From Deltaproteobacteria bacterium (GTDB taxonomy: Bacteria; Myxococcota_A; UBA796; SXON01): DNA of 41,915 nt. How positions within the stretch are numbered: the first letter of the stretch is position 1; each line of letters starts with the position of its first letter. The stretch lies in contig VGRQ01000002.1 of the NCBI GenBank assembly GCA_016875315.1, forward strand, positions 1 through 41,915, in the 5' to 3' direction. The position numbers were made by a program, and so were the translations under genes. This document shows positions 3,612-41,200 of this stretch, piece by piece. The notes beneath the pieces were generated by a model that saw nothing but the letters and a program-made list of their open reading frames with translations, was not told where the DNA came from and made no database searches.

Positions 3612-6600
3612 ATGCTAATCTTCCTCGCCACGCGCTCGCTCGCCGCCACCCTGGAAGTGGGCACCGATTTCGCCACGATCCAGGACGCGATCGACGCCGC
3701 CGCCGACGGCGACACCATCCACGTGCCCGCCGGCACCTGGCCCGAGGCCATCGACATCACCGGCAAGTCGATCACCGTGCTCGGCGACGGCGCCGGGGTC
3801 ACCATCCTCTCCCCGGGCACTGGCGACGACGTCGTCACCATGTCGTCGTTGCGCGCCGCCACGCTCGCCGACCTCACGATCGCGCCCGCGGGCGGACGCG
3901 GGGTCGCGGTCACCGACGGGCAGCTCGCGCTCGAGTCGGTCGTCATCGACGGGGCTGGCAGCGCCAGCACCCGCGGCGGCGCCCTCTACGTCGACGGGGG
4001 CGATCTCTCGCTCAGCGACGTGATCGTCACCGGCTCGACCGCCGCCTACGGCGCGCACCTCTACGCCACCGGCGGCGCCACGGTCTCGGCCCAGAGCCTC
4101 GACCTCACCGCCGGCACCGCTGCCTACGGCGGCGCCATCTACGCCGACGACGGCTCCACCCTCGAGCTGGTCGACGTGGTGGCCTCGGCCCCCTACGCCA
4201 GCGCCCACGGCGGCTTCGCCTACCTCGACGGCGCCGACCTCGTGGCCACCGACCTCGTCGTCGACGCGCCGAGTGGCAAGAACAGCTACGGCGCCGGCTT
4301 CTACCTGTCCGGTCACGCCAGCGCCGACATCCAGAGCGCCACCATCTCCGACGCGAGCATCGCCAGCGCCGCGTCGGGCTACAGCGGCGGCGCCTTCTAC
4401 GTCCGCGATGGCTCCAGCCTCGCGCTCTCCGAGTCTACCCTCCGCGACAACGCCGCCTACCAGGGCGGCGCCATCGCGCTCTGGGAGGCGTCGTCGGCCA
4501 CGCTCGCGTCGGTGCGCTTCGACACCAACAGCGCCAGCGCCGAGGGCGGCGCCATCTACGCGGCCGACGGCTCCACCGTCGACATGGAGAACTGCGCCTT
4601 CGACCAGAACAGCGGCAGCGACGGCGGCGCGGTGTACCTCGGCGACAGCACCACGCTGCTCGACGCCGACGGCAGCTACACCGACAACGACGCCAGCCAG
4701 AGCGGCGGCGCGCTCTTCGTGGATGCGAGCGCCGAGGCGAGCTTCGACGGCAGCGCCTTCAGCTCCAACGCGGCGTCCGACCACGGTGGCGCGATCTACG
4801 CCGACGGCGACCTCGAGATCGAGGAAGCGAGCCTCGGCACCAACCGCGCCCGGCGCGGCCACGGCGGCGCCCTCTACGCCGAGGCCGACACCGAGATCGA
4901 GGCCACCGACTTCAGCGACAACAGCGCCGACCTCGGCAGCGGTGGCGCGATCTACGCCGAGGGCGACCTCGAGGCGAACGACTGTCGTTTTACCGGCAAC
5001 GAGGCCGACGAGGACGGCGGCGCGATCTACGCCGAGGACGGTGCGCTGTCGGTGTGGGAAGGCAGCTTCTTCGACAACCTCGCCGGCGCCTACGGCGGCG
5101 CCATCGCCGCCAGCGAGCCGGGCGACGTGACCCTCGCCCGGTCGTACCTGCACGGCAACGCGGCGAAGGACGGCGGCGCCATCGCGCTCCGCGAGGTCGA
5201 TACCGCCGCCACCCTGTCCAACCTGCGCGTGACCGACAACGTGGCCTCGGGCAATGGCGGCGGCCTCTACCTCGATGGCACGACAGAGCTGGAGATCCTC
5301 AACAACACTCTGGCCGGCAACGACGCCAGCCGCGACGGGGGCCACCTCTACACCACCGGCCCGCTGTCGCTGGTCAACAACATCTTCTACCGGGCGGTCG
5401 ACGGCGGCGGCGCCTACGGCACCAGCGCCTCCACCGACCGCTACTACAACCTCGCCTACGACAACGCGGGCGGCGACTGGTTGGGCTGGGACGACCCCAC
5501 CGGCACCAGCGGCAACCTCAGCACCGACCCGATGCTCGTGGCCTACACCGCAGACGGTTCCCGGGCCGACGACGACCTCTTCCTCGCCGAGGGATCTCCC
5601 TGCATCGACGCCGGTCACCCCTCGATCTTCGACCTCGATGGCACGGTGTCCGACATCGGCGCCTTCGGCGGGCCCGACGCCGACGTGGCCGACGACGACG
5701 GCGACGGCTTCTACGACAACGTGGACTGCGACGACGGCGACCCCGCGATCAACCCCTCGGAGTCCGACATCCCCTACGACGGCCTCGACAACGACTGCGA
5801 CGGCGCCGACCTCGTCGACGTCGACGGCGACGGCTACGCGGCGAGCATCAGCGGCGGCGAGGACTGCGACGACGACGACCCGGCGGTGAAGCCCGGCGCC
5901 ATCGAGACCTACTACGACGGCATCGACCAGGACTGCGACGGCGGCTCCGACTACGACAAGGACGGCGACCACCACGACGCCGACTTCATCGACGGCGGCG
6001 ACGACTGCGACGACGAGGACAACACCGTCCACGGCGCCGCCCAGGAACGCTGGTACGACGGCATCGACCAGGACTGCGACGACCGCGACGACTTCGACCG
6101 CGACAAGGACGGCTACACCTCCGCTGACTACGGCGGCGACGACTGCGACGACTTCAACGCCGACCGTTACCCCGGCCACACCGAGTGGCCCTACGACGGC
6201 ATCGACCAGGACTGCGACAACAACGACCTGGTCGACGTGGACGGCGACGGCTGGATTGCCGAGGAGGCCGGAGGCACCGACTGTAACGACGCCCAGTCCA
6301 CGGTGTACCCCGGCGCCGAGGAAGACCCGGTGGACGGCTTCGACACCGACTGCGACGGCTACTCCGAGTGGGACCGCGACGGCGACGGCTACGACGCCAC
6401 CGACTACGGCGGCGGCGACTGCGACGACTTCGACGCCGCGATCAACCCCGGCGTGTCCGAGGCCTGGTACGACGGCATCGACCAGGACTGCGACGGCCGC
6501 GACGACGACCAGGACGGCGACGGCTACCCGCTGGCGCAGGACTGCGACGACGAAGACCCGGGAACGAACCCCGGCGCCATGGAGAAGATCGACGGCCAGG

Positions 6601-9403: not shown

Positions 9404-12400
9404 TCACCATCCATCGCAGTTGTTGTCTGGGTCGGAAAGCGCGAGTGGCGCGGCTGCCGGGTTGTAGGAGGCATCCGAATCGTCGCAATCGGCACGCGCC
9501 GGCCAGCCATCGCCGTCGGCGTCGCCCCCGCACTCCGTGTCGCTCGGGTCGGCGCACACGAGGAAGCGACGATACGGCGACGCAGACGCCACGTCTCCGA
9601 ACCCGGCCGTGGGCATCCACCCGGGCAGCAGGTTGTCGTTGGCGAGCAGCTGCACCCGGGCTGGAAACGGATCGGCGGCGACGGCCGGATCGAGGGTGAG
9701 CGTGATGTCCACGCTGGCGGCAGAGAGCGCGTTCGGAATCGTGGTGGGGGCGCCCGCCTCGCAGCCTTCGAAGGGCGCGACGCCGGCAGTGCCATAGGCA
9801 CCGCAGTACACGAAGTAGGGAACGTTCGAGAAGCTCGGCGCGTCGATCAAACAGCCATTGGCCGTGCTGAGCTGCACCAACTGTACCTGGTCCACTGTGA
9901 GCAGGGCATCGACAGGTTCACAGGCGCCGGTGTCGAGGCAGGCGGAGGTGTCGGCCTCGGCCCGGGTCACGGCCAGGAGAGGTGTACCCTCACGATTGCC
10001 CCGCACCCACTCGGTGTAGAACGTGGGTTCTGCAAGCCAGGTGCTGATCAACTCGTCCACCGTGGCGGCCGAGCGGTTGTCGGTTCGCTCGAAGAACGCG
10101 ACGAGGTTGGCCCAGAAGCCGGGCTCGCTGCCGCCGTGCGCCCGGTAGGTCCAGTACAGTTGCATGAGGGAATAGGGCCCGAACATGTAGGCAACGCTGT
10201 CGTCGGCGCCGTCTAGCTCCATATCGTCGGCCGAGTTGGCGCAGGTGGCGGTCGCGAGCGCCAGCGCGGCGTCGTAGGGCTCATCCTGTCCCTCCGCACC
10301 ATAGGAGGAGAACACCGGCTGGTCGCCGAGGCGCATCCACGTCAACAACGTGGGCACGCCCTCCACCACCCACCTGGCGCCCGCGTCGTAGGGCGGCTGC
10401 GGCTGCACCCGGAACGCCGTCGCCTGGTGGGCAATCTCGTGTAGCGCGGTGGCCCGCGCATAGTAGAGGGGCACGCCGTCGGCATGCGCGGCCCAGGTCA
10501 CGGTGAGGCCGGGGAATGCCTCCCCGTTGGCCGAGTCGCCGACCGCCGGGTCGGTCCACGCCACCTCCTCGGCGGCGCTGCGCGCCAGCACGAGCACGTT
10601 CACCGGCGAGCCTGGCAGCGCGGCCACGGTGGCCTCCAGCCAGTCGAGGTCGGCCTGCGCCGTGCCGTCGTCGAGGAAGTCGGCGTACGCAGACGCCGGC
10701 CGGTCGATGGCCGGGTCGATCCACACCGGGAGCGAGGACGCCGACGCCGACGTTAGCGTGGTGATCCGCGAGAGCCCCTCGGCAGCGATGAGCAGCGGCA
10801 TGTGCGTGTGCGACTCGCTGCCACGCTCCAGGTTGGCGAGCCCGGAGAAGGTGGTGAGCGCCGTGTCGGGCGCGCCCGGCGCCACGCCCTGCCAACCGGC
10901 GGGGAGCGTGAAGGTGGTGGTGGGCGCGAGGTCGGTCGCCGTGCCGAGGCTGCCGGGGACGACGGGGACTGCGGCGAGGATGACCACGTCGGTGCGCTCG
11001 TCGTCCGGCGTGGCGGTGTCGTCGCCGCCCGTCTGGTAGCGACACAGCGAGGCGTCCTTTCGCTTGTTCTCGACGCAATCGGTGAACCCTCCCTCCTCCA
11101 CCGGCAAGCTCTCCCACTCCACCGCCACCTGCACGTCCATCCCCTCCGTGACGATCCTCGGCAGTCGCGCGTACACGGTCGTGAAGCCGTCGCCTGTGGG
11201 CACCTGGTAGTGCGGCTCGATCGTGTAGCTCGCCCCCGTGTCTGGGTACGTCACCACCACCTGTAGCGTGGCGATCTCGGTGGCACTCTCCGTCGCCACC
11301 AGGAAGATCGCGTCCTCCGCGAAGCACTCGCTCCCCGACGCGCACGCCACGCTGAACGCATAGGATCCGCCCACCCTCCAGGTGCTCCCGTCGTGCCCAA
11401 GGGTGGCGTTCACCGCGTGGGCGGTGAGGGTGCTTCCGGAGAGGGTGCCCTCGGTGCGCTCGAGGTTCTGGTCGCCGGCCAGCGGGTCGGCCGCGTAGGT
11501 GTACACGATATCGTCGGTCCCGCCGCCAAACAGGAACGCGGTGCGCGTGACCGGGTCGTACGCGGCGGCGCCGCCGGACACCCCACCCCACGGCTCGGAG
11601 GGCGCCCAGAGCGTGCGCGCGCCGGCCGAGGTGTCCCAGGCCGAGATGTCGGACAGCTCTCCCCAGGGGTCCTCGCCGCCCCACACCAGCACCTGCTCGT
11701 CGCCGAACCAGGTCGCGGCCGCGTAGATCCGCTGTCCGATGTCGCCCTGCCCGTCCCAGGTGCCCGCGCCCGCATCGTACACGGCCACGTTGTCCCAGCC
11801 GTCAACCAGCCCGGCGGTCGCCGAGCTGTAGGCTCGGTCGCCCTCGATCCAGTCCGAGCTCGCCTGCATGCAGAAGTTGCAGATGTCGCCGGGTGCACCA
11901 TCCGCGAACTCGCAGCGGAGCTGGTGCTGGCGCCCCCTGCCGAGATCCTGGTGCAGCGTGCCGCCGACTTGCACGAGGGAGCCGGTGCCCGAGAACGCGT
12001 GGCTGGAGAAGCTCCACCAGGGGCCGGTGACGGCGCCGGCCGCGCCGCGCCGCCCGTGGGTGCTGTCGGGGGGCACCGCAGTGCCGGCGCTGGCGCTCTC
12101 GGGGTAGCCGTCAAGGCTGGCCGCGCTCCCGTCTACCACGATGAGCGGGTCGGCCGAGGCCGTCGCGAGGTGCTCGTCGGCATCGTCGTCGAGCCCGGCC
12201 ACGACGGACCACGCCGAGCAGTCGCCCTCGCAGCCAGTGGTGCCCCCGGCGATGAGAACGTCTCCGGAGTTGGGGTCGAGACCCAGGGCGAACTCGGCCA
12301 GGCCGGCCACGTTCGCGCTGTCATAGGCCCCCGTCTCCGCGCTGCCGCCGCTCAGGCAGATGGGGTCCTCCGCGCAGGCGGGCTGGTAGTAGTCGTTGTC

Positions 12401-13117
12401 CATTTCAGTGCCATCGCAGCGGAGCGTGGCAAGGCACGGGTTGGCGCTCGCGAAGGTTTTCACGTTGGAGAGGTAGAATGTACCCGAGCTACAGAGGTCG
12501 TCGTCGCAGTCTTCATCGTGCTCGAAGATGCCCTCGCCCAGGCACTCGCCCAGGCGACCGGCCATGGCGGAGGAGTAGGCACAGGGCACCTGCCGGAAGG
12601 AACTGTTGCAGTCGAGCGAGGGCCAGTAGCCCGCGTTGCTCGGCGTCGTGTCGCCGAGGTCGCTGGCGGCGTACTCGATGCTCGGCAGGGTGGTGAGGCT
12701 CGACCAGCCCAGTCCCGACGCCAGGTCGCCCGGCTCGGCCGACCACACGCCGTCACTCGCGGCCGTGGCGGCCGCCTCGTCGAGGTAGCCGGGCGCGAAC
12801 ACGAAGCGCTCGCGGGTGGGGTCCCATGCTAGCCCACCCGAGAAGCTAGCGATCCCCGAGTTGCCGAGCGAGATCCACGGGCAGGCCCCCGTCCCGAGGT
12901 GCGTGAGGTCCAGGAGCCATTCGTCGTCGAGCACCGCGCCGCTGCTCTCGTCCACGCCGCCGTGCAACAGCACGCCCCTCTGCACCCATCGCTCGCTCCC
13001 GCCGCTGCCGAAGTCCACCGGGGACTCGACGAAGAACCACGCCATCGAGTGGTAGCGGCGAGGTTCCGGCACGGCCGACCCGCAGGCCGCCGCGTCGGCG
13101 CTCAGGTTACCGACCAC
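9404..13117 (-). CDS. Giant secreted Kelch-like / HExxH metallopeptidase-like / MopE-repeat protein (main reading frame; its natural N-terminus appears to be the out-of-frame segment 13107-13220)
   Basis: Kelch-like units (RRYHSMAWF...LLHGG...DDEWLLDL; VLVWGG...ISAWD). HExxH motif in ATALHEIAHQA. C-terminal CGGDADGDGWPARADCDDSDASYNPAA...DNNCDGW. As drawn, the frame begins MVGNLSADAAAC and has no signal peptide. Confidence 0.8.
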   Translation of the reverse strand: MVGNLSADAAACGSAVPEPRRYHSMAWFFVESPVDFGSGGSERWVQRGVLLHGGVDESSGAVLDDEWLLDLTHLGTGACPWISLGNSGIASFSGGLAWDPTRERFVFAPGYLDEAAATAASDGVWSAEPGDLASGLGWSSLTTLPSIEYAASDLGDTTPSNAGYWPSLDCNSSFRQVPCAYSSAMAGRLGECLGEGIFEHDEDCDDDLCSSGTFYLSNVKTFASANPCLATLRCDGTEMDNDYYQPACAEDPICLSGGSAETGAYDSANVAGLAEFALGLDPNSGDVLIAGGTTGCEGDCSAWSVVAGLDDDADEHLATASADPLIVVDGSAASLDGYPESASAGTAVPPDSTHGRRGAAGAVTGPWWSFSSHAFSGTGSLVQVGGTLHQDLGRGRQHQLRCEFADGAPGDICNFCMQASSDWIEGDRAYSSATAGLVDGWDNVAVYDAGAGTWDGQGDIGQRIYAAATWFGDEQVLVWGGEDPWGELSDISAWDTSAGARTLWAPSEPWGGVSGGAAAYDPVTRTAFLFGGGTDDIVYTYAADPLAGDQNLERTEGTLSGSTLTAHAVNATLGHDGSTWRVGGSYAFSVACASGSECFAEDAIFLVATESATEIATLQVVVTYPDTGASYTIEPHYQVPTGDGFTTVYARLPRIVTEGMDVQVAVEWESLPVEEGGFTDCVENKRKDASLCRYQTGGDDTATPDDERTDVVILAAVPVVPGSLGTATDLAPTTTFTLPAGWQGVAPGAPDTALTTFSGLANLERGSESHTHMPLLIAAEGLSRITTLTSASASSLPVWIDPAIDRPASAYADFLDDGTAQADLDWLEATVAALPGSPVNVLVLARSAAEEVAWTDPAVGDSANGEAFPGLTVTWAAHADGVPLYYARATALHEIAHQATAFRVQPQPPYDAGARWVVEGVPTLLTWMRLGDQPVFSSYGAEGQDEPYDAALALATATCANSADDMELDGADDSVAYMFGPYSLMQLYWTYRAHGGSEPGFWANLVAFFERTDNRSAATVDELISTWLAEPTFYTEWVRGNREGTPLLAVTRAEADTSACLDTGACEPVDALLTVDQVQLVQLSTANGCLIDAPSFSNVPYFVYCGAYGTAGVAPFEGCEAGAPTTIPNALSAASVDITLTLDPAVAADPFPARVQLLANDNLLPGWMPTAGFGDVASASPYRRFLVCADPSDTECGGDADGDGWPARADCDDSDASYNPAAAPLALSDPDNNCDGW

Positions 13118-13220
13118 GCCTCCCGAGGAACCAGCCGGGGGGGGGGGATGATCCAGTATCTACGCCGTCTTTTCCGTCTACGCCGGTACAAGCATCGAGC
13201 AGCAGCAGCCCGAAGAGCAT
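13107..13220 (-). CDS. Orphan 5' segment encoding a lipoprotein signal peptide (MLFGLLLLDAC...), separated from the giant ORF by a frameshift in a C11 tract
   Basis: SD AGGAGG lies 4 nt upstream of the ATG at 13220. Translation is MLFGLLLLDACTGVDGKDGVDTGSSPPPGWFLGRRGR*. Deleting one C from the tract fuses it to ...PPPAGSSGGVVGNLSADAAAC of the 9404-13117 frame. Confidence 0.7.
   Translation of the reverse strand: MLFGLLLLDACTGVDGKDGVDTGSSPPPGWFLGRRGR
13137..13147. repeat. Homopolymer G11 (C11 on the coding strand)
   Basis: Counted directly: ccagcc + 11 g + atg. It is one of only two runs of 8 nt or longer that I found in the window. Confidence 0.95.
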
Positions 13221-16952: not shown

Positions 16953-17699
16953 CTACCCCATCCAAGCCCCGCCGTTGACATCGATCCCCTGCCCGGTGAC
17001 ACACGAGGCCGCGGGCGACATCAACCACGCCACCACCCCGGCGATCTCGTCGGGGGTGCCCATCCGCCCGAGGGGAACGGCGCTCATCGCCCGGCGGTGG
17101 GCCTCCTCGCGGCTCACGCCCATCGCCTGGGCCATGCCCTCGATGCCCGACCAGGCCATGTCGGTGTCCACCCAGCCGGGGCAGATGGCGTTCACCAGCA
17201 CCCCCTGCGGCGCCAGTTCCAGCGCCATCGCGCGGGTGAGCCCGAGCAGGGCCGCCTTCGACGCGCAGTAGCCGGTGTAGCCGGGCACGCCGAAGCGGGC
17301 GAGCACGCTCGCGATCACGATGAAGTAGCGCCGGTCGGGGCCGGGCGCGAGGTGGCGCTCGGCGGCGCGCAGCGTGTTGTAGGCGCCGGTGAGGTTGGTG
17401 GCCACGATCTCGTCGAAGCGGTCGCCCTCGCCGGGGGCGTTGGCCCCGCCGATGCCGGCGGCGGCCACCACCGCGAACACCGGCCCGTTCACCTCCGCGG
17501 CCTGCGCGAAGGCAGCGTTGACCGCGGCACGATCCGACACGTCGCAAGGCAGGCCGAGCACGCCGTCGAGACCGGCCAGCAACTCCGCCCGGCGAGCGAG
17601 ACCGGTCACCTTCGCGCCATCGGCGACCATCCTGAGGGCAATGGCGCGGCCGATACCGCTGGAAGCGCCGGTGACGAGCACGTGGGGGGCAGTAGACAA
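16953..17699 (-). CDS. Short-chain dehydrogenase/reductase (FabG-like)
   Basis: TGASSGIGRAIA cofactor motif, catalytic YCASKAAL, and LVNAICPGWVDTDM. Confidence 0.9.
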   Translation of the reverse strand: MSTAPHVLVTGASSGIGRAIALRMVADGAKVTGLARRAELLAGLDGVLGLPCDVSDRAAVNAAFAQAAEVNGPVFAVVAAAGIGGANAPGEGDRFDEIVATNLTGAYNTLRAAERHLAPGPDRRYFIVIASVLARFGVPGYTGYCASKAALLGLTRAMALELAPQGVLVNAICPGWVDTDMAWSGIEGMAQAMGVSREEAHRRAMSAVPLGRMGTPDEIAGVVAWLMSPAASCVTGQGIDVNGGAWMG

Positions 17700-17776: not shown

Positions 17777-18664
17777 CTACCAGTCGGGCGCCTGCCAGAT
17801 CGGGTCGGCGCAGTTGACACGACGCACGATCTCGATGGTGTACCTGGCGGTGCCCACGGTGGGCTGCATGGCGTACTCCACCTGGAGCAGCCGGTGGTCG
17901 TAGGTGCCGTCCTCGCCGAAGTCGGCCTTGGTGTCAATACGGCAGGTCCGGTAGGTCCACAGGTCGTCCGTGGCGTGGGAGCCGACGGCGAAGGGGATGC
18001 TCCAGTCGTAGTCACCGTCGTCACTGGCGAATCGGTAGACCTCGAGCGTGCGCGCGAGGTCGAAGAACGCCGACCGGTCGGCAGGTATCGCTGTCACCGT
18101 CCAGAGGGGGTCGATCGTTCGCACGCCGGAATCCGACTCGAAGAGACTGCCCACGTCGGCCATCTGCGAGAACACGGTGCACCTTGGGACGCGGAAGGCA
18201 CGCCTGGTGCTCTCGGTGCGGTCCCAGATCACGTCGATCCAACGTGGATCGGTTGTGTCGGTCGAGTCGTAGAGCTCGGCATCCGCTCCGACGCCCCTCT
18301 CGAAGATCGCGAGCGCGTCTGTCTCGGAGTCCGCGCACCACACACCGTCATCCCTCAGGAGCCCCGGCGCATACCACACGGACGTCGGCTCGCCGAATCG
18401 CCACAACCAGTCCGGGGCCTGCGTGTTGCCGTCGAGCCACTCGGTGTAGTACCGGCTCGCCCAGCCGGCGCAGAACGCCTCGTCGCTGATGCTCGGAGCG
18501 CACTGTGGCAGGCCGTCGTCGTCGAACTGCACGCTGGCGTAGGGCAACTCGCTGGCCACCGAGTCTGTTCCCGACGAGTCGGCTTGGCAGGCAAGAAGAT
18601 GGACAAGGAAGCCCGCACGCGCGTCCAGTGACGGCCACCTGCCCCGTCGGATGATGACTACCAA
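17777..18664 (-). CDS. Hypothetical Cys-containing lipoprotein, paralog 2 of a tandem pair
   Basis: The C-terminal 78 aa are identical to the upstream paralog except for one substitution (R/K). The proposed TTG start at 18664 gives MVVIIRRGRWPSLDARAGFLVHLLAC. No ATG or GTG is available after the upstream stop, so the start is uncertain. Confidence 0.6.
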   Translation of the reverse strand: MVVIIRRGRWPSLDARAGFLVHLLACQADSSGTDSVASELPYASVQFDDDGLPQCAPSISDEAFCAGWASRYYTEWLDGNTQAPDWLWRFGEPTSVWYAPGLLRDDGVWCADSETDALAIFERGVGADAELYDSTDTTDPRWIDVIWDRTESTRRAFRVPRCTVFSQMADVGSLFESDSGVRTIDPLWTVTAIPADRSAFFDLARTLEVYRFASDDGDYDWSIPFAVGSHATDDLWTYRTCRIDTKADFGEDGTYDHRLLQVEYAMQPTVGTARYTIEIVRRVNCADPIWQAPDW

Positions 18665-19503
18665 TCTGGCGCCTGCCAGATCGGGTCGGCGCAGTTGACG
18701 CGACGCACGATCTCGATGGTGTACTTGGCGGTGCCCACGGTGGGCTGCATGGCGTACTCCACCTGGAGCAGCCGGTGGTCGTAGGTGCCGTCCTCGCCGA
18801 AGTCGGCCTTGGTGTCGATCCGGCAGGTCCGGTAGGTCCACAGGTCGTCCGTGGCGTGGGAGCCCACAGCGAAGGGGATGCTCCAGTCGTAGAAGCCGTC
18901 GGATGCGACGCGGCGATAAACCTCCAACACTCGGGCAACGTCGAAGAACGACTCCCGGCTCGCCGGAACGGTGGCGTACGTCCAGAGCGGATCGATGGTG
19001 CGCGCCCCAGACTCGGCCTCGAAGAGCCGACCGACGTCGTACATCTGCGAGAAGACACTGCAGCGAGGGACACGAAACACGTTCCAGGACACCTCGGTCT
19101 GGCCGAAGATCAGGTCAATCCAACGGGGATCCGATGAATCAGTCGAGTCGAAATACTCCGCGGACCCCGGCCAGATTCTGCTGAACACGGCGAAGGCCTC
19201 TTCGTCGGTGTCGGCACACCACGCGCCGTCGTCCTCCACCCCGCCAGCGGAGAACCACACCATCGGCGGATCATCGAATCGAGTCAACCAGTCGGGAGAC
19301 ATCGGACTCCCCTCAACCCATCCGGTGTAGTAGCGGCTGGCCCACCCTGCGCAGAACGCCTCGTCGCTGATGCTCGCCGCGCACTCCGGCAGGCCGTCGT
19401 CGTCGAACTGCACGCTGGCGTAGGGCAACTCGCTGGCCACCGAGTCTGTTCCCGACGAACCGGCGTGGCAGGCGAGAAGATACACCGTCACCAGGGAGGT
19501 CAC
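18658..19503 (-). CDS. Hypothetical Cys-containing lipoprotein, paralog 1 of a tandem pair
   Basis: The GTG at 19503 overlaps the protease stop (GTGA) and gives (M)TSLVTVYLLAC. Conserved blocks are SSGTDSVASELPYASVQFDDDGLP.CA.SISDEAFCAGWASRYYT and YDWSIPFAVGSHATDDLWTYRTCRIDTKADFGEDGTYDHRLLQVEYAMQPTVGTA.YTIEIVRRVNCADPIWQAPDW. Confidence 0.6.
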   Translation of the reverse strand: MTSLVTVYLLACHAGSSGTDSVASELPYASVQFDDDGLPECAASISDEAFCAGWASRYYTGWVEGSPMSPDWLTRFDDPPMVWFSAGGVEDDGAWCADTDEEAFAVFSRIWPGSAEYFDSTDSSDPRWIDLIFGQTEVSWNVFRVPRCSVFSQMYDVGRLFEAESGARTIDPLWTYATVPASRESFFDVARVLEVYRRVASDGFYDWSIPFAVGSHATDDLWTYRTCRIDTKADFGEDGTYDHRLLQVEYAMQPTVGTAKYTIEIVRRVNCADPIWQAPDW

Positions 19504-21728
19504 GGGCACGCCAGGACCGCCCCCACGGCGTCCAGGTAGCGCCCGCCATCCACTTCTCCGCTGATGTCTTCGGCGGGACTGGAATCCGCCCCACTCAGTA
19601 GCGCATCGGCGAGATCGGCGCCCGTCGCCATTGACGACGGGCACTGTGCGTAGACCAGCCCGGCAACACCACCCACCACGGCAGCTGCCGCAGACGTCGC
19701 GCCAGTCCAGTCACGGATATCCGGATTCCACTTGGCGTACCCATTGGCGGAGGTCCCGGTTCCAACTGATGGCATGCCCGCGAGGAGCGCGTCGGCCCCG
19801 GTGGTAGCGTCGTACGTCCTGTATAGGTAGCCCGGAGCACCGAGTTCCATGCTCCCCGTTCCGTGACTTGATGCGTGCTCGGTGGGTCCTGCATACGCGG
19901 TGTCGTTCCACCGGCCCGTCATCACGCCCGTCGCAGCGGCGTAGTCAATCCCCGTGGCCATCACATTGACGGTGTTCGTGGCCTGATTGTCGGCAGGCAG
20001 GCAGTAGATGCCGATGTCGTCGCAGTCGAGGTCCCAGTTCCCGGCCGCAGTGACGAAGACGATGTCGGGAAAACTCTCGAACTCCGATGTGATCTTATCG
20101 ATCATCGCCTCCTCCTCGGTCTCGCTGACCTCGTACGCACCGGCGTATTCCATCACGATCACGTTCGCGCCGTTCTGATAGAGGTAGTCGATGGCCGCCA
20201 GGTAGGCGGCGAGATCGTACGCCCCGCACTCCTCGTTACCGCTGAGCCGGGCCTCCATGATCCGGGCGCCGCCCATCACACCGGCGCCGTTCCGCGCGTT
20301 GTCCCACTCCATCGCCACCAGGCCCGCCGTCTGCGTGCCGTGGTGAGCCCCATCTGCGGGGTACGACTCGTTGTCCAGATCAGTCGCACCCTCGTCGAGC
20401 TCGCATAGGCCGGTGTCCTTGTTCTCCGTCCAGCGCAGGATCACCCGCGCCCCCAGGATGTCGTCCACAACGCCGTTGCCGTCGTCGTCCGTGCCGTCAG
20501 CAAAGGCTTCCGCCAAATCGCCGCCCTGGTATTGGCCGTCATCAAACGGTACCGACGCCTCGTCATAGAGCGAGTCATCGAGCGTGATTCCCGTCGCCGC
20601 CTGGAGGTCGGCGAGCGCGGCGGCGAGCGCGCTGGCGCTCGACGGGTTGTTGAGGTCGTTGAGCGTGAAGACGCCGTCGCCGTCGAGATCGAACACGTCG
20701 ACGAAGCTGCTCGTGCCGATGTCGGGAAGCTCCCCCTCGTTCACCCACAGGTTGTTCACCAGGTCCGGGTGGTTGTAGTCGATCCCGGTGTCTACGAAGC
20801 CCACGATCACCTCGCGGCTACCCTCCGCCGCGTAGAGGTCCCAGGCGTCCTCCACGCCGATGTCCGCGAGGAAGGCGGCCTCGGCATCGACGTAGTAGGG
20901 GTCGTCGTGGAGTGTGGCATCGTGCCCCGCTGGCCGGAGAAGCGGGTCGAGGGTGGCGAAGGCGACGAGCGGCGAGGCGCGATATTGGACGAGCTTCGCG
21001 AGGATACCGCCCCAGTCCGTACCCGCGAACTCGAGCACGCGCAGGCCGGTCTGCCGCGACATCACCTCCCGCGCGCCCGTGGCCACCTCCCAGCTTTCCA
21101 CCTCCGCGGCCGTGGCCTCTGGGTCGAAGCGGACGAGGAGCCGCCGCTCGTGGAACTCGAAGCGCGCGGGCTCGGCCACGAGCTGCGCGTCGAGTTCGGT
21201 GTCGACCGCCACGACCGAAGCGCCCACGGCGACATCGGAGTCGGGCTCGGTGTCGAGCACGAGTTGCAGACCGGTACGCCCGCCCGGGGTGATGACCGGC
21301 AGGCTCCCCTCGGGCAAGAACCGGACGACGGCCGAGCCGGCGGCCGCCTGCAGCGAGGGCCCGAAGAGGATGGGAAAGCTACCGCCAGGCGCCTCCGCCA
21401 GCCCGGCGCTGACGCCCACTCGCACGTCCTGCACCTGCCCGGGCGGGAGCCAATACTGACCGGCAAAGCGCGGGAACTCCCCGGTGACCGCGTAGAACCA
21501 CACCGGCACTGGCCCGGTGGCGACCGTGAGGTACTCGGGCGGTTGCAGCTGCCCGTTGACCAGGCGCCGGTGCCTCACCTTGATCTCGTCGATGAAGACG
21601 CGCAGCTTGCTCGCGCCCGAGAAGGCGCCCGATGTCGCGTGCTCCAGCTTCAAGTTCAGGACCAGAAGGCCATCGGTGGGCGGATCCGGGACGATCGACG
21701 GCTCCTCCACGATACAGCCGGCGGCCAA
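19500..21728 (-). CDS. Subtilisin-like serine protease (peptidase S8). The lipoprotein signal peptide and the SD+ATG lie upstream (to 21808) but out of frame.
   Basis: Catalytic boxes VGFVDTGIDYNHPDL (Asp), HGTQTAGLVA (His), TAAGN (oxyanion Asn) and GATSAAAAVVGGVAGL (Ser). In-frame upstream codons encode ...HHSRRLWLATGLLAAGC with no start codon. Confidence 0.85.
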   Translation of the reverse strand: MAAGCIVEEPSIVPDPPTDGLLVLNLKLEHATSGAFSGASKLRVFIDEIKVRHRRLVNGQLQPPEYLTVATGPVPVWFYAVTGEFPRFAGQYWLPPGQVQDVRVGVSAGLAEAPGGSFPILFGPSLQAAAGSAVVRFLPEGSLPVITPGGRTGLQLVLDTEPDSDVAVGASVVAVDTELDAQLVAEPARFEFHERRLLVRFDPEATAAEVESWEVATGAREVMSRQTGLRVLEFAGTDWGGILAKLVQYRASPLVAFATLDPLLRPAGHDATLHDDPYYVDAEAAFLADIGVEDAWDLYAAEGSREVIVGFVDTGIDYNHPDLVNNLWVNEGELPDIGTSSFVDVFDLDGDGVFTLNDLNNPSSASALAAALADLQAATGITLDDSLYDEASVPFDDGQYQGGDLAEAFADGTDDDGNGVVDDILGARVILRWTENKDTGLCELDEGATDLDNESYPADGAHHGTQTAGLVAMEWDNARNGAGVMGGARIMEARLSGNEECGAYDLAAYLAAIDYLYQNGANVIVMEYAGAYEVSETEEEAMIDKITSEFESFPDIVFVTAAGNWDLDCDDIGIYCLPADNQATNTVNVMATGIDYAAATGVMTGRWNDTAYAGPTEHASSHGTGSMELGAPGYLYRTYDATTGADALLAGMPSVGTGTSANGYAKWNPDIRDWTGATSAAAAVVGGVAGLVYAQCPSSMATGADLADALLSGADSSPAEDISGEVDGGRYLDAVGAVLACP

Positions 21729-21754
21729 GAGGCCAGTCGCGAGCCAAAGGCGTC

Positions 21755-21796
21755 GTGAGTGGTGGGTGCCGGGTGCCGGGTGCCGGGTGCCGGGTG
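21755..21796. repeat. Heptanucleotide tandem repeat: (CCGGGTG)x4 perfect, preceded by the degenerate copies GTGAGTG and GTGGGTG (coding-strand unit CACCCGG)
   Basis: Read directly: gtgagtg gtgggtg ccgggtg ccgggtg ccgggtg ccgggtg. Confidence 0.95.
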
Positions 21797-21879
21797 AAAG
21801 TACATCATCTCGCCCTCAGTGCAAGCTCATCGTACTGCGCTCAGGCGTCAGCCGCAAGTACGCTCTGCATCCTTCGCCC

Positions 21880-21897
21880 TTCACCCACGCCACGCGA
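21880..21897. repeat. 18-bp sequence CCACGCGAAACCCGCGCG (copy 2)
   Basis: Identical to 17747-17764. It lies in the divergent intergenic region between the S8 protease and the sulfatase-like gene. Confidence 0.8.
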
Positions 21898-21937
21898 AAC
21901 CCGCGCGGTCGTAGCCCAGGCCCGCTAGGCTCGCGCC

Positions 21938-23344
21938 GTGCTGCTCACCATGCTCGCCTGCGACCCCGAGCCCCCCGAGGGCTGCGCCTTCTCGTCGATG
22001 GCCACGGCGCCGGAGTCCGCCAGCACCTGCCCCGCCGACGCGGGCGACTACGACCCGGTGGCGATGGGCCCGGCGCCGCTGGTGGTGATGTTCACCGTCG
22101 ACACGCTCAATCGCGCCTACCTCGACGGTCGCCACCCGGACTGGGACATCACCCCCCGGCTCGACGCCTTCTTCGCCGAGTCGGCGTACCTGCCCGAGGT
22201 GGTGTCCGTCCGCAGCCTCACCGGCGTGGCGCTCAGTTCCCTGCTCACCGGCCGCTACCCGCGGGCGCACGGCGTGCGCGACCACGCCGAGCAGGTGGGC
22301 ACCACCATCGAGACCCTCCCCGAGCACCTCGCCTCGGGCGGCTACGCCACCCGCGCCTTCATCTCCAACCAGTGCTGGGTGATCGACGGCAAGGTCGACG
22401 AGCTCACCTGCCGATGGAACCGGCAGGACGAGTCCGAACAGGATCTCAAGGACGAGGAGCTGGTCACGAGCTTCACCCGCGCGCTGGACCAGCTGAGCGG
22501 ACCCACTTTCCTCTGGATTCACCTCGTGGATCCCCACACGCCCTACGACGCGCGCGAGCCCTACTACGACACATTCCACCCCGAGCCCCCGGCCGGCGAC
22601 TTCGACCCGGGGGTGGAGGGTGCGCTCGCCGACGTCAACCTCGGGGAGCGCAGCATCACCCCGGAGGAGCACGCGCAGGTGGAGGCGGCCTACGCCTCGC
22701 AGGTGGCGCTGGTCGACGCCCAGTTCGGCGAGGTGCTCGACGCGCTGTCGTCGCGGGGCCTCGACGACGCGATTGTCGTCTTTGGCGCCGACCATGGCGA
22801 GGAACTGGGCCTGCACAGCCACTACTACTGGCATTCTTGCTCCACCTTCAACGCGTCGCTCATGCTGAGCTTCGCCATCCGTGCTCCCGGGCGCCTCGCG
22901 GGCGGCGCGGTGATGGCGAGCCCGGTGTCGAGCACCGACATCGCGCCCACCGTTGCCGAGCTGGCGGGCCTGCCGTGGGACAACGACATCGACGGCACCT
23001 CGCTGGTCGGCGACTTCCGCGCCTGCCGCGAGCCCACGCGACCGGCCTACTTCGAGCGCGCCACCGAGGCGGCCGGCATGGTGGTGGAGGGCCACAAGCT
23101 GGTGCTCGAGCCCGAGGGCTGGACCAGCGCCTGCGAGCCCTACACCGACGACATCCCCTACGTGATGGCCCGGGAACAGCTCTACGACATCGAGTCCGAC
23201 CCCGACGAGTGTACCAACCTGGCCGAGGATGAACCCGCGATGTTCAGCGAACTACGTGGACAACTCTGCGACTGGGTGCTCGCCACGCCCTGGGTGGCCA
23301 CCAACAACGAGCGAAACCCGGTGGTCCGCGCCTGCGGGGGCTGA
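21938..23344 (+). CDS. Sulfatase-like / alkaline-phosphatase-superfamily lipoprotein (no canonical C/S-x-P-x-R motif)
   Basis: MLLTMLAC lipobox. Metal-site motif VVMFTVDTLN. SLLTGRYPRAHGV is the sulfatase signature II-like region. WIHLVDPHTPYD and FGADHGEELG are also present. Confidence 0.75.
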   Translation: MLLTMLACDPEPPEGCAFSSMATAPESASTCPADAGDYDPVAMGPAPLVVMFTVDTLNRAYLDGRHPDWDITPRLDAFFAESAYLPEVVSVRSLTGVALSSLLTGRYPRAHGVRDHAEQVGTTIETLPEHLASGGYATRAFISNQCWVIDGKVDELTCRWNRQDESEQDLKDEELVTSFTRALDQLSGPTFLWIHLVDPHTPYDAREPYYDTFHPEPPAGDFDPGVEGALADVNLGERSITPEEHAQVEAAYASQVALVDAQFGEVLDALSSRGLDDAIVVFGADHGEELGLHSHYYWHSCSTFNASLMLSFAIRAPGRLAGGAVMASPVSSTDIAPTVAELAGLPWDNDIDGTSLVGDFRACREPTRPAYFERATEAAGMVVEGHKLVLEPEGWTSACEPYTDDIPYVMAREQLYDIESDPDECTNLAEDEPAMFSELRGQLCDWVLATPWVATNNERNPVVRACGG

Positions 23345-23367
23345 GATCGCGAGATAGCGCCGCGGCC

Positions 23368-23868
23368 ATGCAAATCGCCGCCGCCACCGTCGTCGCCTTC
23401 GACTACACCCTCACCGACGGCGATGGCGCCGTCATCGACCAGTCGCCCCCGGGCGAGCCGCTGAGCTACCTCCATGGTGCCGGCAACATCGTCCCCGGCC
23501 TGGAGCGCCAGCTCGAGGGCCTCGTCGTGGGCGACGCGCGCACCTGCGTGGTGCCACCGAACGAGGGCTACGGCCTCGCCACCAACCAGGGCATCCGCGT
23601 GCCCCACGCCGAGTTCCCCGGCGAGATGGAACCCCAGGTGGGCATGGCGGTGGGCGCCACCGGTCCCGACGGCAAGACGGTCCCCCTGTTCATCAAGGGC
23701 GTGACCGACGAGGAAGTTTTCCTCTCCTTCGACCACCCGCTCGCCGGGGTCACGCTCCACTTCGCGGTGGCCATCCGCTCGATCCGGGCCGCCACCGACG
23801 AGGAGCTGGCTCACGGCCACCCGCACGGCCCGGGCGGCGGTCACCACCATGGTCACGACCACGGGTAG
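23368..23868 (+). CDS. slyD: FKBP-type peptidyl-prolyl isomerase with a His-rich tail
   Basis: VVAFDYTLTDGDGAVIDQS...PLSYLHGAGNIVPGLERQLEGLVVGD...FDHPLAGVTLHF, followed by the tail HGHPHGPGGGHHHGHDHG. Confidence 0.9.
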   Translation: MQIAAATVVAFDYTLTDGDGAVIDQSPPGEPLSYLHGAGNIVPGLERQLEGLVVGDARTCVVPPNEGYGLATNQGIRVPHAEFPGEMEPQVGMAVGATGPDGKTVPLFIKGVTDEEVFLSFDHPLAGVTLHFAVAIRSIRAATDEELAHGHPHGPGGGHHHGHDHG

Positions 23869-24951
23869 TCAGTCCTCGGCCCACTGCCCGCCGGTGAGCC
23901 CCGAGTCCCAGCTCCCGATGCCGAGGTAAGCGAGGTTGAGGTAGCCACGCGAGGCGTCGACCGCCGCCTCCCAGCTGATCTCGGTGTCGATGACACCCTT
24001 GAACAACTTCAGGCGGAACAGGCGCACTTCGAGCCCGGTCGTACCGTGGAGGCGGCCGGAAGCCAGCGCCGTGCGCGTGGGCTCGAAGTAGCTGCCCGCC
24101 CGCACCCGCAGGCGCCGGGGGACGGCCTCCACCTCGAAGCCCAGGTGGGGTGTCACGGTGAGGTTCTTGCCCCGGCGAACGCCCTCGCCCTCGAGGGCGG
24201 TCTCCAGCGCGTAGCCATCCTCCACGGCGCCGTCGATGGTGAGATCGCCGGCCACGCGCACCGGGCGAGGGGGCGCGTGCTCGGCGTCGGTCCAGCCCAC
24301 GCCGAGCGCGAGGTGCCAGGGCATCACCGCCGCCTCGATGGGGTAGGGGCTGCCGCCCTCGGTGGGCACGGCGCGCACCTCGGAGCGGAAGGTGCCGCCG
24401 AGGTTCCAGCCGTCCCACAGTCGCGACGCGAGCACCCCCACCTCGCCGCCCTGCCCGGTCCAGTCGAGCGTGTTGCCGTCGCGCTCCCCGTGGACCGCGA
24501 GCGCGCGAGCGCCGAGCGCCACCGCCACCTTGCCGTCGTCGTAGCTCCCCCCGGCAGCGAGGTGTCCCTCGGTGACGTTGATGAGCGCGCTGCCGAAGCG
24601 GTATTCCAGCCCCGAGTACACCAGTCCCCCGCCGAAGTTGCGCCAGAAGCCGGCCACCCCGAGGTTGGCCATGCCGCCGGTCTTCGGCCCCACCTCGCCC
24701 AGGTTGGCCACGTCTGTCGCTTTCTCCGGGCCGAGCGCCAGCTGAGTGAACGCGAGTGACACTCCCCAGGTGCGCGTCTGCTCGATGCGGCGGTTCACCG
24801 GCGCGGCCGGGTTGAAGAAGGTGCCGTTGGCGCCGCGGGCGAAGCCGAGCCCGGCGCCGCCCATGGCGGTGATCTCGGCCGGGGCGAGCACCACCAGCCG
24901 GGTGGTGTCGATCACCGGCTCGGCGGCGAGGGCGAGGGAGAAGAGCAGCAC
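23869..24951 (-). CDS. Hypothetical outer-membrane beta-barrel-like protein
   Basis: Short signal peptide MLLFSLALAAEP. Alternating hydrophobic/Gly-rich strands. High GC3. No family recognised by eye. Confidence 0.55.
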   Translation of the reverse strand: MLLFSLALAAEPVIDTTRLVVLAPAEITAMGGAGLGFARGANGTFFNPAAPVNRRIEQTRTWGVSLAFTQLALGPEKATDVANLGEVGPKTGGMANLGVAGFWRNFGGGLVYSGLEYRFGSALINVTEGHLAAGGSYDDGKVAVALGARALAVHGERDGNTLDWTGQGGEVGVLASRLWDGWNLGGTFRSEVRAVPTEGGSPYPIEAAVMPWHLALGVGWTDAEHAPPRPVRVAGDLTIDGAVEDGYALETALEGEGVRRGKNLTVTPHLGFEVEAVPRRLRVRAGSYFEPTRTALASGRLHGTTGLEVRLFRLKLFKGVIDTEISWEAAVDASRGYLNLAYLGIGSWDSGLTGGQWAED

Positions 24952-25000
24952 CGGGGGGGAGGTATCCGCGCCGCGGCGAACTGTCGGCTATGCTACGGCC

Positions 25001-25165
25001 ATGCCCATCAGCCCCGAGGAACTCGCCCGACGCCTGGAGGAGGCGGTGCGCGTGCGCCGGAAGCTCCGCGAGGCCACCCGGGCGCTCCAGGCGGCGGGCG
25101 ACGCCATCCGGAAGCAGCGTGAAGCCGAGCCTCGACGACCCGATCCAGCTCGCGATCCTCGCTGA
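25001..25165 (+). CDS. Small charged/coiled-coil ORF (54 aa) overlapping the start of the nucleotidyltransferase-like gene
   Basis: MPISPEELARRLEEAVRVRRKLREATRALQAAGDAIRKQREAEP... Its first ~75 nt include a 45-bp block duplicated exactly at 28706-28750. It may instead be the frameshifted 5' part of the next gene. Confidence 0.3.
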   Translation: MPISPEELARRLEEAVRVRRKLREATRALQAAGDAIRKQREAEPRRPDPARDPR

Positions 25166-28478: not shown

Positions 28479-28665
28479 TTCGCGGCGGCAAGTCAAGGGG
28501 ACCGCCGGGTCCGGCCGAGCTACCGCCGCGGAACGCGGCTTTCACGGCGGCAAGTCAAGGGGACTGCCGGGTCCGGCCGAGTTGCCGCCGCAGAACGCGG
28601 CTTTCGCGGCGGCAAGTCAACGGCACCGAGAGGTCCGGTCGAGTTGCCGCCGCGCCACGCGGCGC
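28479..28665. repeat. Three tandem copies of a 62-bp unit (GGCGGCAAGTCAAGGGGACCGCCGGGTCCGGCCGAGCTACCGCCGCGGAACGCGGCTTTCAC)
   Basis: ggcggcaagtcaa starts at 28484, 28546 and 28608, an exact 62-bp period. Each unit has internal hairpins (GGCGG...CCGCC; GCCGCG-gaa-CGCGGC). The third copy is the most diverged. Confidence 0.85.
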
Positions 28666-38262: not shown

Positions 38263-41200
38263 ATGAGCTTCCTCCTCCTCTTGTCCCTGGGTTGCCGCGA
38301 GACCGGCGAGACCAAGTTCGTCACCGACCGCGATGAAGACGGCGTCTCCGAAGACGACGATTGCAACGACGAGGACGCCAGCATCGGCCTCCCCGGCACC
38401 TACTACGTAGACTACGATCACGACGGCTACGGCGACGACAGCACCGCCGAGAGCTACTGCGAGCGCCCCGCCGGCTACTCCGAGGTGGGCGGCGACTGCG
38501 ACGACCTGGTGGCCGAGGTGTACCCCGGCGCCGAGGACACCTGCGACGGCCTCGACAACGACTGCGACGGAACCATCGACAACGGCGCCACCGCCACGAT
38601 GTACTACGTGGACGCCGACCAGGACGGCTACGGCGACGACGCCAGCACCGTGTACGACTGCACCCAGCCCGAGGGCACCGCCACCGTGGGCGGCGACTGC
38701 AACGACGCCGACGCCGCCTACAACCCAGGCGCCAGCGAGAGCGACTGCGCCGACCCCAACGACTACAACTGCGACGGCTCGGTGGGCTACGACGACGCCG
38801 ACGGCGACGGCTACGCCGCCTGCGAGGAGTGCGACGATGGCAGCGCCGCCGTCAACCCCGCCGCCGAGGAGAGCTGCAACGACGTGGACGACGACTGCGA
38901 CGGCCTCGTCGACGACGCCGACGACACGGTGAACGGCACCCTCACCTGGTACCGCGACCTCGACGGCGACAGCTACGGCGACGCCACCACCTCCACCGCC
39001 GCCTGCGACCAGCCCGAGGGCTACGGCAGCGACAACACCGACTGCGACGACACCCGCGCCGACGTGAACCCGGCGGCCTCGGAGGTGTGCAACGACCTCG
39101 ACGACGACTGCGACAGCCTCGTGGACGACGCCGACGACAGCCTCGACACCAGCACGGCCAGCACCTGGTACGTTGATGCCGACAGCGACGGCTACGGCAG
39201 CGACAGCAGCACGCTCCTGGCCTGCAACCAGCCCGGTGGCACCAGCACCCTCGCCGGCGACTGCGACGACGCCGACGCCGCCTACAACCCCGGCGCGCTC
39301 GAGGACGACTGCACCGACCCCAGCGACTACAACTGCGACGGCTCGGTGGGCTACGACGACGCCGATGGCGACGGCTACGCCGCCTGCGAGGAGTGCGACG
39401 ACGGCAACGCCGCCAACAACCCGGCCGCCACCGAGAGCTGCGACGGCGCCGACAACGACTGCGACGGCACCGTGGACGAGGACGACGCCAGCGACGCGCT
39501 GACCTGGTACGCCGACGCCGATGGCGACGGCTACGGGGATGATACATCCACCACCGAGGCTTGCTCCGCGCCTTCGGGATACTTGGCCGACAACAACGAC
39601 TGTGATGATACAAACGCCGATGTGTCGCCAGCCGAGGTGGAGCTGTGCAATGGCCTCGACGACGACTGCGACGGCACGGTCGACGAGGACGACGCGGGCG
39701 ACAGCGCCACCTGGTACGCCGACGCCGACGGCGACGGCTTCGGCAACGCGGCGAGCAGCGTGGAGTCCTGCGCCGCGCCCAGCGGCTACGTCAGCGACAG
39801 CGAGGACTGCGATGATACTTCCGCCGATGTATCACCCGGCGATATCGAGGTTTGTAACGACATCGACGATGACTGCGATGGCACCGTCGACGAGGACAGC
39901 GCCGCCGACGCCAGCACCTGGTACGCCGACAGCGACGGCGATGGCTATGGCAACGCGGCGAGCACCACCGTCGCCTGCGACGCGCCCGCTGGCTACCTCG
40001 CCGACGACAGCGACTGCGATGATACTTCAGCCGATGTATCACCCGCCGGGACTGAGCTTTGTAACGGCATCGACGACGACTGCGACGGGAGCACCGACGA
40101 GGACAGCGCCGCCGACGCGAGCACCTGGTATGCCGACAGCGACGGCGATGGCTACGGCAACGCCGCCGCCACCGCGGAGGCCTGCAGCGCCCCGGCCGGG
40201 CACGTGGCCGACGACAGCGACTGCGATGATACTTCCGCCGATGTATCACCCGCCGGGACTGAGCTTTGTAACGGCATCGACGACGACTGCGACAGCAGCG
40301 TGGACGAGGGCGTGGAGACCACCTACTACCGCGACGCCGACGGCGACAGCTACGGCAACGCCGCGGTCACCGACGACGCCTGCTCGGCTCCCAGCGGCTA
40401 CGTCAGCGACGACACCGACTGCGACGACAGCGACGCCACCAGCTACCCGGGGGCGGTCGAGAGCTACGACGGCGCCGACAACGACTGCGATGGCACCGTG
40501 GACGACACCCCTTGGAGCGGCACCGGGGCCGACGGCAGCCTCAGCGTGTCGACCAGCACCACCGTCAACGAGAGCTGGGCGGTCACCGGGATCTCGGGAG
40601 CCGTCGTCACCGTGGACGGCAGCCCGGGCCTCGCCGAGGGCGACGAGGTGTTCGTCATCAACATGCACGGCAGCGACAGCGCCTACACCAACGTCGGCAA
40701 CTACGAGTTCGCGTGGGTGAACTCGGTGTCGGGGAGCAACATCACGCTCGCCGCCTCGCTGTCCACCACCTTCGGGCAGAGCAGCAACGCCGACCTGACC
40801 GACCAGGCCGTCCAGGTGGTGCGCGTGCCCCAGTACACCGACGTGACGGTGAGCAGCGGCGGCTCGATCACCGCCGAGGCGTGGGACGGCGAGACCGGTG
40901 GCGTGCTCGCCTTCCGCGCCACCGGCGTGGTGACGGTGGCCAGCGGCGGGAACCTCAACGCCGACGAGATGGGCTACTGGGCAGGCGAGACCGGCACCGC
41001 CTACAACAACGATGCCTTCCAGGGCGAGTCCTACGCCGGCGAGGGCGACGGGAACTTGCCCCCGTCGGGCGGCTACTACGGCAACTGGGCCGCAGGGTAC
41101 TACCAGAACAACTACGGGGGCGGCGGCGCGATGATCACCGGCGGCGGCGGCAACTACGGCGGCGGCGCCTCGGCCGGCGCGAGCTGGACCGGGGGTAGCT

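Follow-up and report, generated by a model that had tools for sequence, protein, structure and literature searches.

The 5' end of a gene for an S8 (subtilase) protease on contig VGRQ01000002.1 (assembly GCA_016875315.1, Deltaproteobacteria bacterium) carries a short tandem repeat with a 7-bp unit. The contig was analysed as a single stretch of 41,915 nt, referred to here as the window. Very probably, the 7-bp tract is a hypermutable simple sequence repeat that serves as a translational phase-variation switch, i.e. a contingency locus, for a lipid-anchored S8 protease. The tract encodes part of the n-region of a lipoprotein signal peptide; upstream of it is the ATG, and downstream the segment that carries the arginine pair, the hydrophobic stretch and the lipobox. 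Because seven is not a multiple of three, each unit gained or lost shifts the frame of the ATG against that of the signal peptide and protease, bringing the two together or setting them apart. A full-length pre-lipoprotein (ON) is predicted at every third copy number and a short dead-end peptide (OFF) at the others. Four properties typical of contingency loci are present: a repeat unit that is not a multiple of three near the 5' end of the open reading frame (ORF), a copy number that toggles between the full-length and the truncated frame, purifying selection on OFF alleles, and length polymorphism among near-identical genomes, the last seen for the ortholog and for two homologs.

An earlier note on this DNA, made from the letters alone, had described a GAGGG Shine-Dalgarno, an ATGATG, four CACCCGG units, two degenerate units and an out-of-frame signal peptide, and each of these elements is found at its place (Table 1). 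TACTTT sits between ATGATG and the first CACCCGG unit on the minus strand. Tandem Repeats Finder delimits the array at 21764..21796 (period 7, 4.7 copies, 100% matches), the only perfect period-7 array in the window. Its 33 nt compare with at most 21 nt for the longest period-7 run when the window was simulated 300 times with an order-2 Markov model; the tract is far beyond chance expectation. The ATG frame begins MMYFHPAPGTR, and in the present register it runs for the 50 codons that had been estimated before meeting a TGA. The protease frame, which contains SRRLWLATGLLAAGCIVEEPS, is closed upstream by another TGA. From there its first ATG, GTG or TTG is TTG 21728, 80 nt from the ATG at 21808, as also noted earlier; upstream of it the frame reads ..GTHHSRRLWLATGLLAAGC before entering the protease, and the ORF opened by the TTG spans 19500..21728 (742 aa) with a product beginning MAAGC. 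In-silico editing of the unit number gives fusions of 764, 771 and 778 aa at 2, 5 and 8 perfect units (e.g. a restored N-terminus MMYFHPAPGTRHPAPGTHHSRRLWLATGLLAAGC...) and a 50-aa ORF at the observed four, in line with the expectation that gaining one unit or losing two would restore the fusion.

Strong evidence comes from the comparison with related genomes that the earlier note had proposed. In a protein search the window's own gene call (P0001) has 736 aa, its start placed after the lipobox. Another match is an 85%-identical ortholog of 764 aa (P0002) from a sister species, represented by metagenome-assembled genome (MAG) GCA_005778355.1. Its N-terminus is MTYFHPAPSTQRSRRGLFATVVFAAGCIQEEPS (also given as MTYFHPAPSTQRSRRGLFATVVFAAGC, and as MTYFHPAPSTQRSRR...AAGC), and its ATG, equivalent to that of the window, is fused in frame to the signal peptide, which is the ATG-to-signal-peptide fusion that had been predicted. 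DNA conservation between the window and the ortholog begins at the Shine-Dalgarno (GAGGGCG-GATGA-GTACTTTCACCC), and the spacing from Shine-Dalgarno to ATG is the same in both. The ortholog has (CACCCAG)x3 where the window has (CACCCGG)x4 plus CACCCAC, making the window 14 nt longer. The 90% cluster of the ortholog holds four proteins of 764, 771, 730 and 730 aa. The 771-aa member (P0035) differs from P0002 by one additional HPAPSTQ, equal to three repeat units, and the gene calls of the two 730-aa members (P0033 and P0034) begin only after the lipobox.

Four assemblies of the orthologous locus carry 3, 4, 5 and 6 units, and the frame status tracks the unit number (Table 1). The six-unit contig differs from the four-unit contig by no mismatch in 5207 bp and by a single 14-nt gap, located in the repeat; against the three-unit contig it shows no mismatch in 5221 bp and a single 21-nt gap, again in the repeat. 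The five-unit allele belongs to a strain 93.9% identical. Conservation extends to the Shine-Dalgarno, the ATG and the YFHPAP peptide, and the ON alleles have these in frame with the signal peptide. With at least two repeat changes against no substitutions in about 5200 flanking sites, the tract appears to mutate orders of magnitude faster than its flanks. The ortholog contigs from ENA are k141 MEGAHIT assemblies, so that arrays of 21-42 nt fit inside single k-mers, and by assembler logic graph collapse should be unable to explain their counts. The window repeat, four perfect units and one degenerate unit in the OFF register, aligns base for base with the five-unit allele, its CACCCAC pairing with the fifth unit of that allele. 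The ortholog alleles, their identical flanks and the homologs with other length-variable repeats described below all support the slipped-strand ON/OFF switch put forward in the earlier note.

The genes behind the OFF registers do not look like decaying genes. Between window and ortholog the mature protease gives dN/dS 0.13 (dS 0.65, 738 codons), compared with 0.15 for the first downstream partner gene (partner A) and 0.17 for a neighbouring sulfatase used as a control gene. Between the OFF five-unit allele and the ON six-unit allele of the sister species, dN/dS for the protease is 0.04 (64 synonymous and 9 non-synonymous differences). By these ratios the OFF genes are under purifying selection and are maintained rather than decaying. 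The repeat units themselves are all CACCCGG in the window and all CACCCAG in the sister species despite dS 0.65. As a neutral 33-nt stretch would lose its periodicity at this divergence, the arrays seem to be kept homogeneous, presumably by ongoing expansion and contraction and/or by selection.

Further support can be garnered from distant members of the family, defined here as proteins with the family-specific N-terminal domain and comprising 18 representatives among 1.84 billion proteins. Homologs of 30-45% identity carry unrelated repeats, poly-C or GTGTTCC, at the same position, and the lengths of these differ between assemblies. At the P0004 locus, C11 in the ENA assembly (L003) against C12 in the Logan assembly (L004) is the sole difference in 4690 bp; the gene would be ON at C7, C10 or C13, and both assemblies are OFF. 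At the P0005 locus the two assemblies have six and four units on backgrounds about 99.9% identical. The GTGTTCC unit itself contains a GTG start codon, which is in frame at optimal spacing from GGAGG only at 2, 5 or 8 units; the start is uncertain here, as downstream of the array there is a further GTG, constant and in frame. The same two assemblies, otherwise near-identical, also differ by an 81-bp insertion or deletion downstream of the cassette (L005 ~7026). Members without a repeat (P0006, P0008/P0036, P0010, P0161, P0162, P0168 and P0170) have ordinary in-frame lipoprotein signals. Judged by sequence, the repeats at this one site across a tiny protein family are convergent. A scan of the genome collection with the family alignment returned the ortholog contig as the sole true member, the other 70 loci being distant S8 proteases. 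A metagenome scan with the N-terminal-domain alignment returned the same ortholog contig and a 5'-truncated relative of 32% identity (L084), and no new 5' ends.

Table 1. Features of the window locus, repeat alleles of the sister-species ortholog, and repeats at homologous loci. Positions are those of the window unless preceded by a locus handle (L numbers); P numbers are proteins.
Feature	Position	Strand	Details
Shine-Dalgarno GAGGG	21813..21817	minus	read from sequence; CGAG (4 nt) separates GAGGG from ATG
ATGATG	21803..21808	minus	21808-21806 is the start codon in the ON register; aligns to ATG of ortholog proteins P0002/P0035 (MTYFHPAP...)
Four perfect CACCCGG units, slippage-prone tract	21769..21796	minus	Tandem Repeats Finder, period 7, 100% matches
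Degenerate units CACCCAC (21768-21762) and CACTCAC (21761-21755)	21755..21768	minus	sequence
TGA closing the protease frame upstream	21816..21818	minus	frame scan
Lipoprotein signal peptide HHSRRLWLATGLLAAGC	21714..21764	minus	protease frame, out of frame with ATG; Cys codon 21716-21714
Dead-end ORF from ATG, 50 codons	21656..21808	minus	present four-unit register; stop TGA 21658-21656
Mature S8 (subtilase) protease, predicted lipoprotein	19500..21716	minus	beta-sandwich, prodomain-like unit and catalytic domain
Partner A, 281 aa, probable lipoprotein (MTSLVTVYLLAC)	18658..19503	minus	GTG start overlaps protease TGA (GTGA)
Partner B, 295 aa	17777..18664	minus	TTG start overlaps partner A stop
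Ortholog allele L001, SXON (GCA_005778355.1)			3 CACCCAG units; ATG-to-Cys 78 nt; in frame
Ortholog allele L085, ERZ27257035			6 CACCCAG units; ATG-to-Cys 99 nt; in frame
Ortholog allele L086, ERZ27257034			4 CACCCAG units; ATG-to-Cys 85 nt; out of frame
Ortholog allele L087, GCA_040960315.1			5 CACCCAG units; ATG-to-Cys 92 nt; out of frame
P0004 repeat (42% identical)	L003:2368-2378 (C11); L004:192-203 (C12)		ATG-CGTTTCTG-poly-C, then ..SQFAWLMLAGC
P0009 repeat	L011:2840-2847		C8 right after ATG; ON at 7/10, thus OFF; out of frame with ..AWLFAGLLSGC
P0003 repeat	L008:1280-1289		C10 just after lipobox; in frame, encodes SPPPH
P0005 repeat (43% identical)	L005:2849-2894 (x6); L006:2863-2894 (x4)		GGAGG, then TGTTCCG units (GTGTTCC repeat)

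The protease has a single Pfam match, PF00082 (E = 1.5e-22), and its catalytic residues D342, H492, N614 and S708 (triad plus oxyanion Asn) are invariant in the family. The AlphaFold2 (AF2) model has a mean predicted local distance difference test (pLDDT) score of 67.8 with well-defined cores: a disordered N-terminus is followed by a beta-sandwich at about residues 49-213, a prodomain-like unit at residues 221-291 with beta-alpha-beta-beta-alpha-beta topology, and the S8 domain. In the PDB the best fold matches are to subtilases, a number of which carry prodomains (deseasin MCP-01, SUB1, fervidolysin and pro-Tk-SP; E down to 8e-11). Pfam matches to the N-terminal domain of the protease are weak (DUF4382, 7e-4, in one member; Fervidolysin prodomain, 0.08). 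Using a PROSITE-type lipobox pattern, a match is given by the restored ON N-terminus (...HHSRRLWLATGLLAAGC) and by 14 other family N-termini; the TTG-21728 product and the OFF peptide both fail. The position of the lipobox Cys is conserved across the family. With its positive n-region, hydrophobic core and lipobox ending in Cys, the ON product is a predicted lipoprotein and signal peptidase II substrate. About half of the full-length gene calls in the family start at or after the lipobox and hence have no signal peptide. Such gene-caller truncation, as in the 736- and 730-aa calls above, hides both the localisation and the switch.

Downstream of the protease, the translational coupling of two paralogous genes to it, stated in the earlier note, is borne out at the sequence level. 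Partners A and B are 74% identical, and the near identity of their C-terminal ~80 residues suggests gene conversion. Partner homologs (25-40% identity, one or two copies) follow the protease at every family locus, which makes this a conserved protease-plus-partner cassette; most of them begin with a short hydrophobic stretch ending in Cys. The partner is tandemly duplicated in the window (17777-19503) and single in the sister species (L001:12292-13137). An SDR gene lies upstream of the protease in the ortholog and downstream of partner B in the window (16953-17699). The partner protein has no Pfam match above noise, no sequence match in the PDB and three homologs by word search only, and its AF2 model reaches a pLDDT of 38.9. 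Very short signals without a charged n-region recur in many putative lipoproteins of this lineage (MTSLVTVYLLAC, MLLMLALLAC, MIMLPLLLAC, MPMILLFAC); they occur at 19503 and 13220 in the window, at L001:13171, and in the partner genes of L003, L005 and L007. The signals of partner A, partner B and the gene at 13220 each fail the standard lipobox pattern at one position.

A mechanism consistent with these observations would be as follows. Units would be gained or lost through slipped-strand mispairing in replication. The residues encoded by the repeat (HPAPGTR or HPAPSTQ) would be cleaved off with the signal peptide, leaving the mature enzyme unchanged by copy number. Since the start codons of partners A and B overlap the preceding stop codons, their translation could be expected to fall with that of the protease, through lost coupling or polarity, and the switch would then gate a three-gene surface module. 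Switching may be frequent, reversible and adaptive, serving as bet-hedging of a surface structure.

Three other explanations have to be weighed against a repeat-driven switch. The four-unit count could be an assembly miscount, the true window allele having five perfect units (a 40-nt array, in frame) collapsed to four by a small-k de Bruijn assembler. Thirty-three nt would be the length of perfect array expected if a graph of k=31-33 collapses a 40-nt period-7 array. The Logan assembly of run SRR7985589 (L002) is 100% identical to the window over 19429-25060, repeat included, and Logan contigs use k=31, so this agreement is not fully independent proof. Nevertheless, two different assemblies of the read set agree on the count and the Logan contig crosses the array unbroken. 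At the orthologous locus, OFF alleles of four and five units come from k141 MEGAHIT contigs and from a separate MAG, neither of which should be open to such a collapse. A miscount is thus improbable and, even if true, would leave a variable repeat switch that was merely caught ON. Similarly improbable is a permanent frameshift, by which the gene would be a pseudogene in the window lineage and the repeat merely the site of breakage. The window consensus is indeed out of frame, frameshifts that involve no repeat occur in two family members (L007 and L013), and a GC content of 70.5% keeps long ORFs open by chance. Set against this are a dN/dS over the 738 codons equal to that of neighbouring genes, intact catalytic residues, a repeat that is still perfect and homogenised, and ON and OFF alleles on identical backgrounds in the sister species.

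The least probable alternative, which we regard as very unlikely, is that the repeat gates nothing: the present register would still yield the protease, either because ribosomes undergo programmed -1 frameshifting in the repeat or because they initiate at TTG 21728. In its favour, the protease lies in the -1 frame with respect to the ATG, and TTG 21728 is the first canonical start in that frame. The tract holds no X XXY YYZ slippery heptamer, however, and a structured RNA or frameshift stimulator was rejected: shuffled versions of the region fold just as well (z = -0.03) and no Rfam match was found in the window. An alternative in-frame start was likewise rejected. None precedes TTG 21728, which has no Shine-Dalgarno and whose MAAGC product fails the lipobox and signal pattern and so has no export signal. 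Use of the ATG as start is favoured by its conservation, by that of its Shine-Dalgarno and by the in-frame fusion conserved in the ON alleles. A scan of 21600-22000 for promoters and terminators found nothing, and this organism may not follow the sigma-70 consensus.

Several observations weigh against a phase-variation switch. Four units are seen in both assemblies of SRR7985589, the sole known read set for the window population. Many classical contingency loci have more than four perfect units, and switching here may accordingly be of modest rate. The ortholog assemblies are either independent samples or re-assemblies of overlapping data; in both cases the reads hold several alleles. In L007 (170-260) the signal peptide MNRFLTIVFFLAGC is in another frame than the protease with no repeat present, and L013 (~3960-3990) has a frameshift without a repeat at about codon 82 (..LDIVHRYL* vs IYEDD..); plain inactivation or assembly error also occurs in the family. 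Among repeat-bearing consensus sequences six are OFF and three ON, which fits a one-in-three expectation and would also fit selection for loss.

The window and the sister species contain other repeats in similar positions. A second possible switch begins at ATG 13220 (MLFGLLLLDAC TGVDGKDGVDTGSS) and is followed by a minus-strand C11 at 13137-13147. An ORF of 1237 aa at 9404-13117, with a MopE-like Cys motif at its C-terminus, is read in a different frame; a tract of C10 or C13 would join it to ATG 13220. The short signal at 13220, which carries Asp at position -2, does not match the strict lipobox pattern, and a protein-cluster look-up for other alleles of the 1237-aa gene gave the window contig only. 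On the plus strand, ATG 25829 (Shine-Dalgarno AAGGAG) is preceded at about 60 nt by a C11 (25758-25768), which stands beside a promoter-like TTGACG..TACTCT and is possibly a promoter-located repeat. By GC content at third codon positions (GC3, 0.91) the frame of ATG 25829 is the real coding frame; its ORF stops after 174 aa and the high-GC3 frame runs to about 26796. In the sister species a G10 (C10 on the gene strand; L001:3268-3277) is found about 78 nt upstream of a 168-aa gene, beside flhA. Longer tandem repeats reported in the window by Tandem Repeats Finder are at 28479-28663 (62 bp x3.0, 86%) and 703-829 (66 bp x1.9, 93%), and a 207 bp x4.8 repeat at 39443-40424 lies inside a large Asp/Cys-rich ORF.

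Altogether, the 42-kb window has three long simple repeats at gene 5' ends or promoters. It is conceivable, though short of probable, that the protease locus is one of many, i.e. part of a multi-locus 'phasome' through which an apparently free-living high-GC lineage switches lipoprotein and surface genes by means of repeats, with the S8-plus-partner cassette having repeatedly and independently gained different repeats (7-mers and poly-C) at the same site. If true, this would be a non-pathogen counterpart of the contingency-gene systems of Neisseria, Haemophilus and Campylobacter. Simple-repeat phase variation has been documented almost entirely in pathogens and host commensals, and the present locus offers a concrete case from uncultured environmental metagenomes. 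It also illustrates that public metagenome assemblies allow repeat-based switching to be recognised directly. The surface protease and its partner lipoproteins are flagged as a module worth expressing only part-time; possible reasons are exposure to phages or predators, the cost of a public good, or a remodelling of the surface like that by NalP.

The organism had been called Myxococcota-like. The nearest named AhcY relatives, at about 80-82% identity, are Deltaproteobacteria/Myxococcota MAGs; the label is plausible but only approximate. The open-access literature searched yielded no description of repeat-based phase variation from Myxococcus or Myxococcota, within which scope the earlier impression of no described precedent agrees with our searches. 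Phase variation outside pathogens and commensals is named as a knowledge gap in a 2025 review (PMC11868660), which suggests that biased databases may be one explanation and expects cases to emerge from bacteria of ocean and soil.

Among known systems, the Opa proteins of Neisseria have CTCTT repeats in the region coding for the leader peptide and switch frame by slipped-strand mispairing at ~1e-3 per cell per generation (PMC3960869). Opa and the window locus share a unit that is not a multiple of three in the 5' leader-coding region, with the repeat-encoded residues in the cleaved leader and the mature protein unchanged. Opa, however, is an adhesin with a beta-barrel in the outer membrane of a host-restricted pathogen and has many more units, whereas the window locus concerns a lipoprotein S8 protease, a 7-nt unit present in 3-6 copies, and an uncultured environmental lineage. 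In PilC1/PilC2 of Neisseria gonorrhoeae a poly-G tract in the signal-peptide-coding region undergoes slipped-strand phase variation, according to Jonsson 1991 as cited in PMC13190605. Here too the phase variation is translational and lies inside the signal-peptide-coding region, but the PilC repeat is a homopolymer and PilC is a pilus tip adhesin with a non-lipoprotein signal peptide, not a protease.

Functionally the closest known system is NalP of Neisseria meningitidis, with a coding poly-C tract that is ON at 7, 10 or 13 C (PMC3723659, PMC5472700). Both proteins are S8/subtilisin-like serine proteases with an N-terminal lipid anchor and a coding-region repeat switch, and the poly-C homologs of the present family share the 7/10/13 periodicity of NalP. 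NalP is an autotransporter with a C-terminal beta-barrel and known substrates. The window protease is not an autotransporter of this type: Pfam finds no autotransporter domain in it, the protein ends about 25 residues past the S8 domain, and the AF2 model contains no barrel. It also differs from NalP in its N-terminal beta-sandwich, its conserved partner-lipoprotein gene and its 7-nt repeat. The mechanism itself follows the classical design of contingency loci and is not surprising; the case is unusually well evidenced and lies outside the usual host-associated setting.

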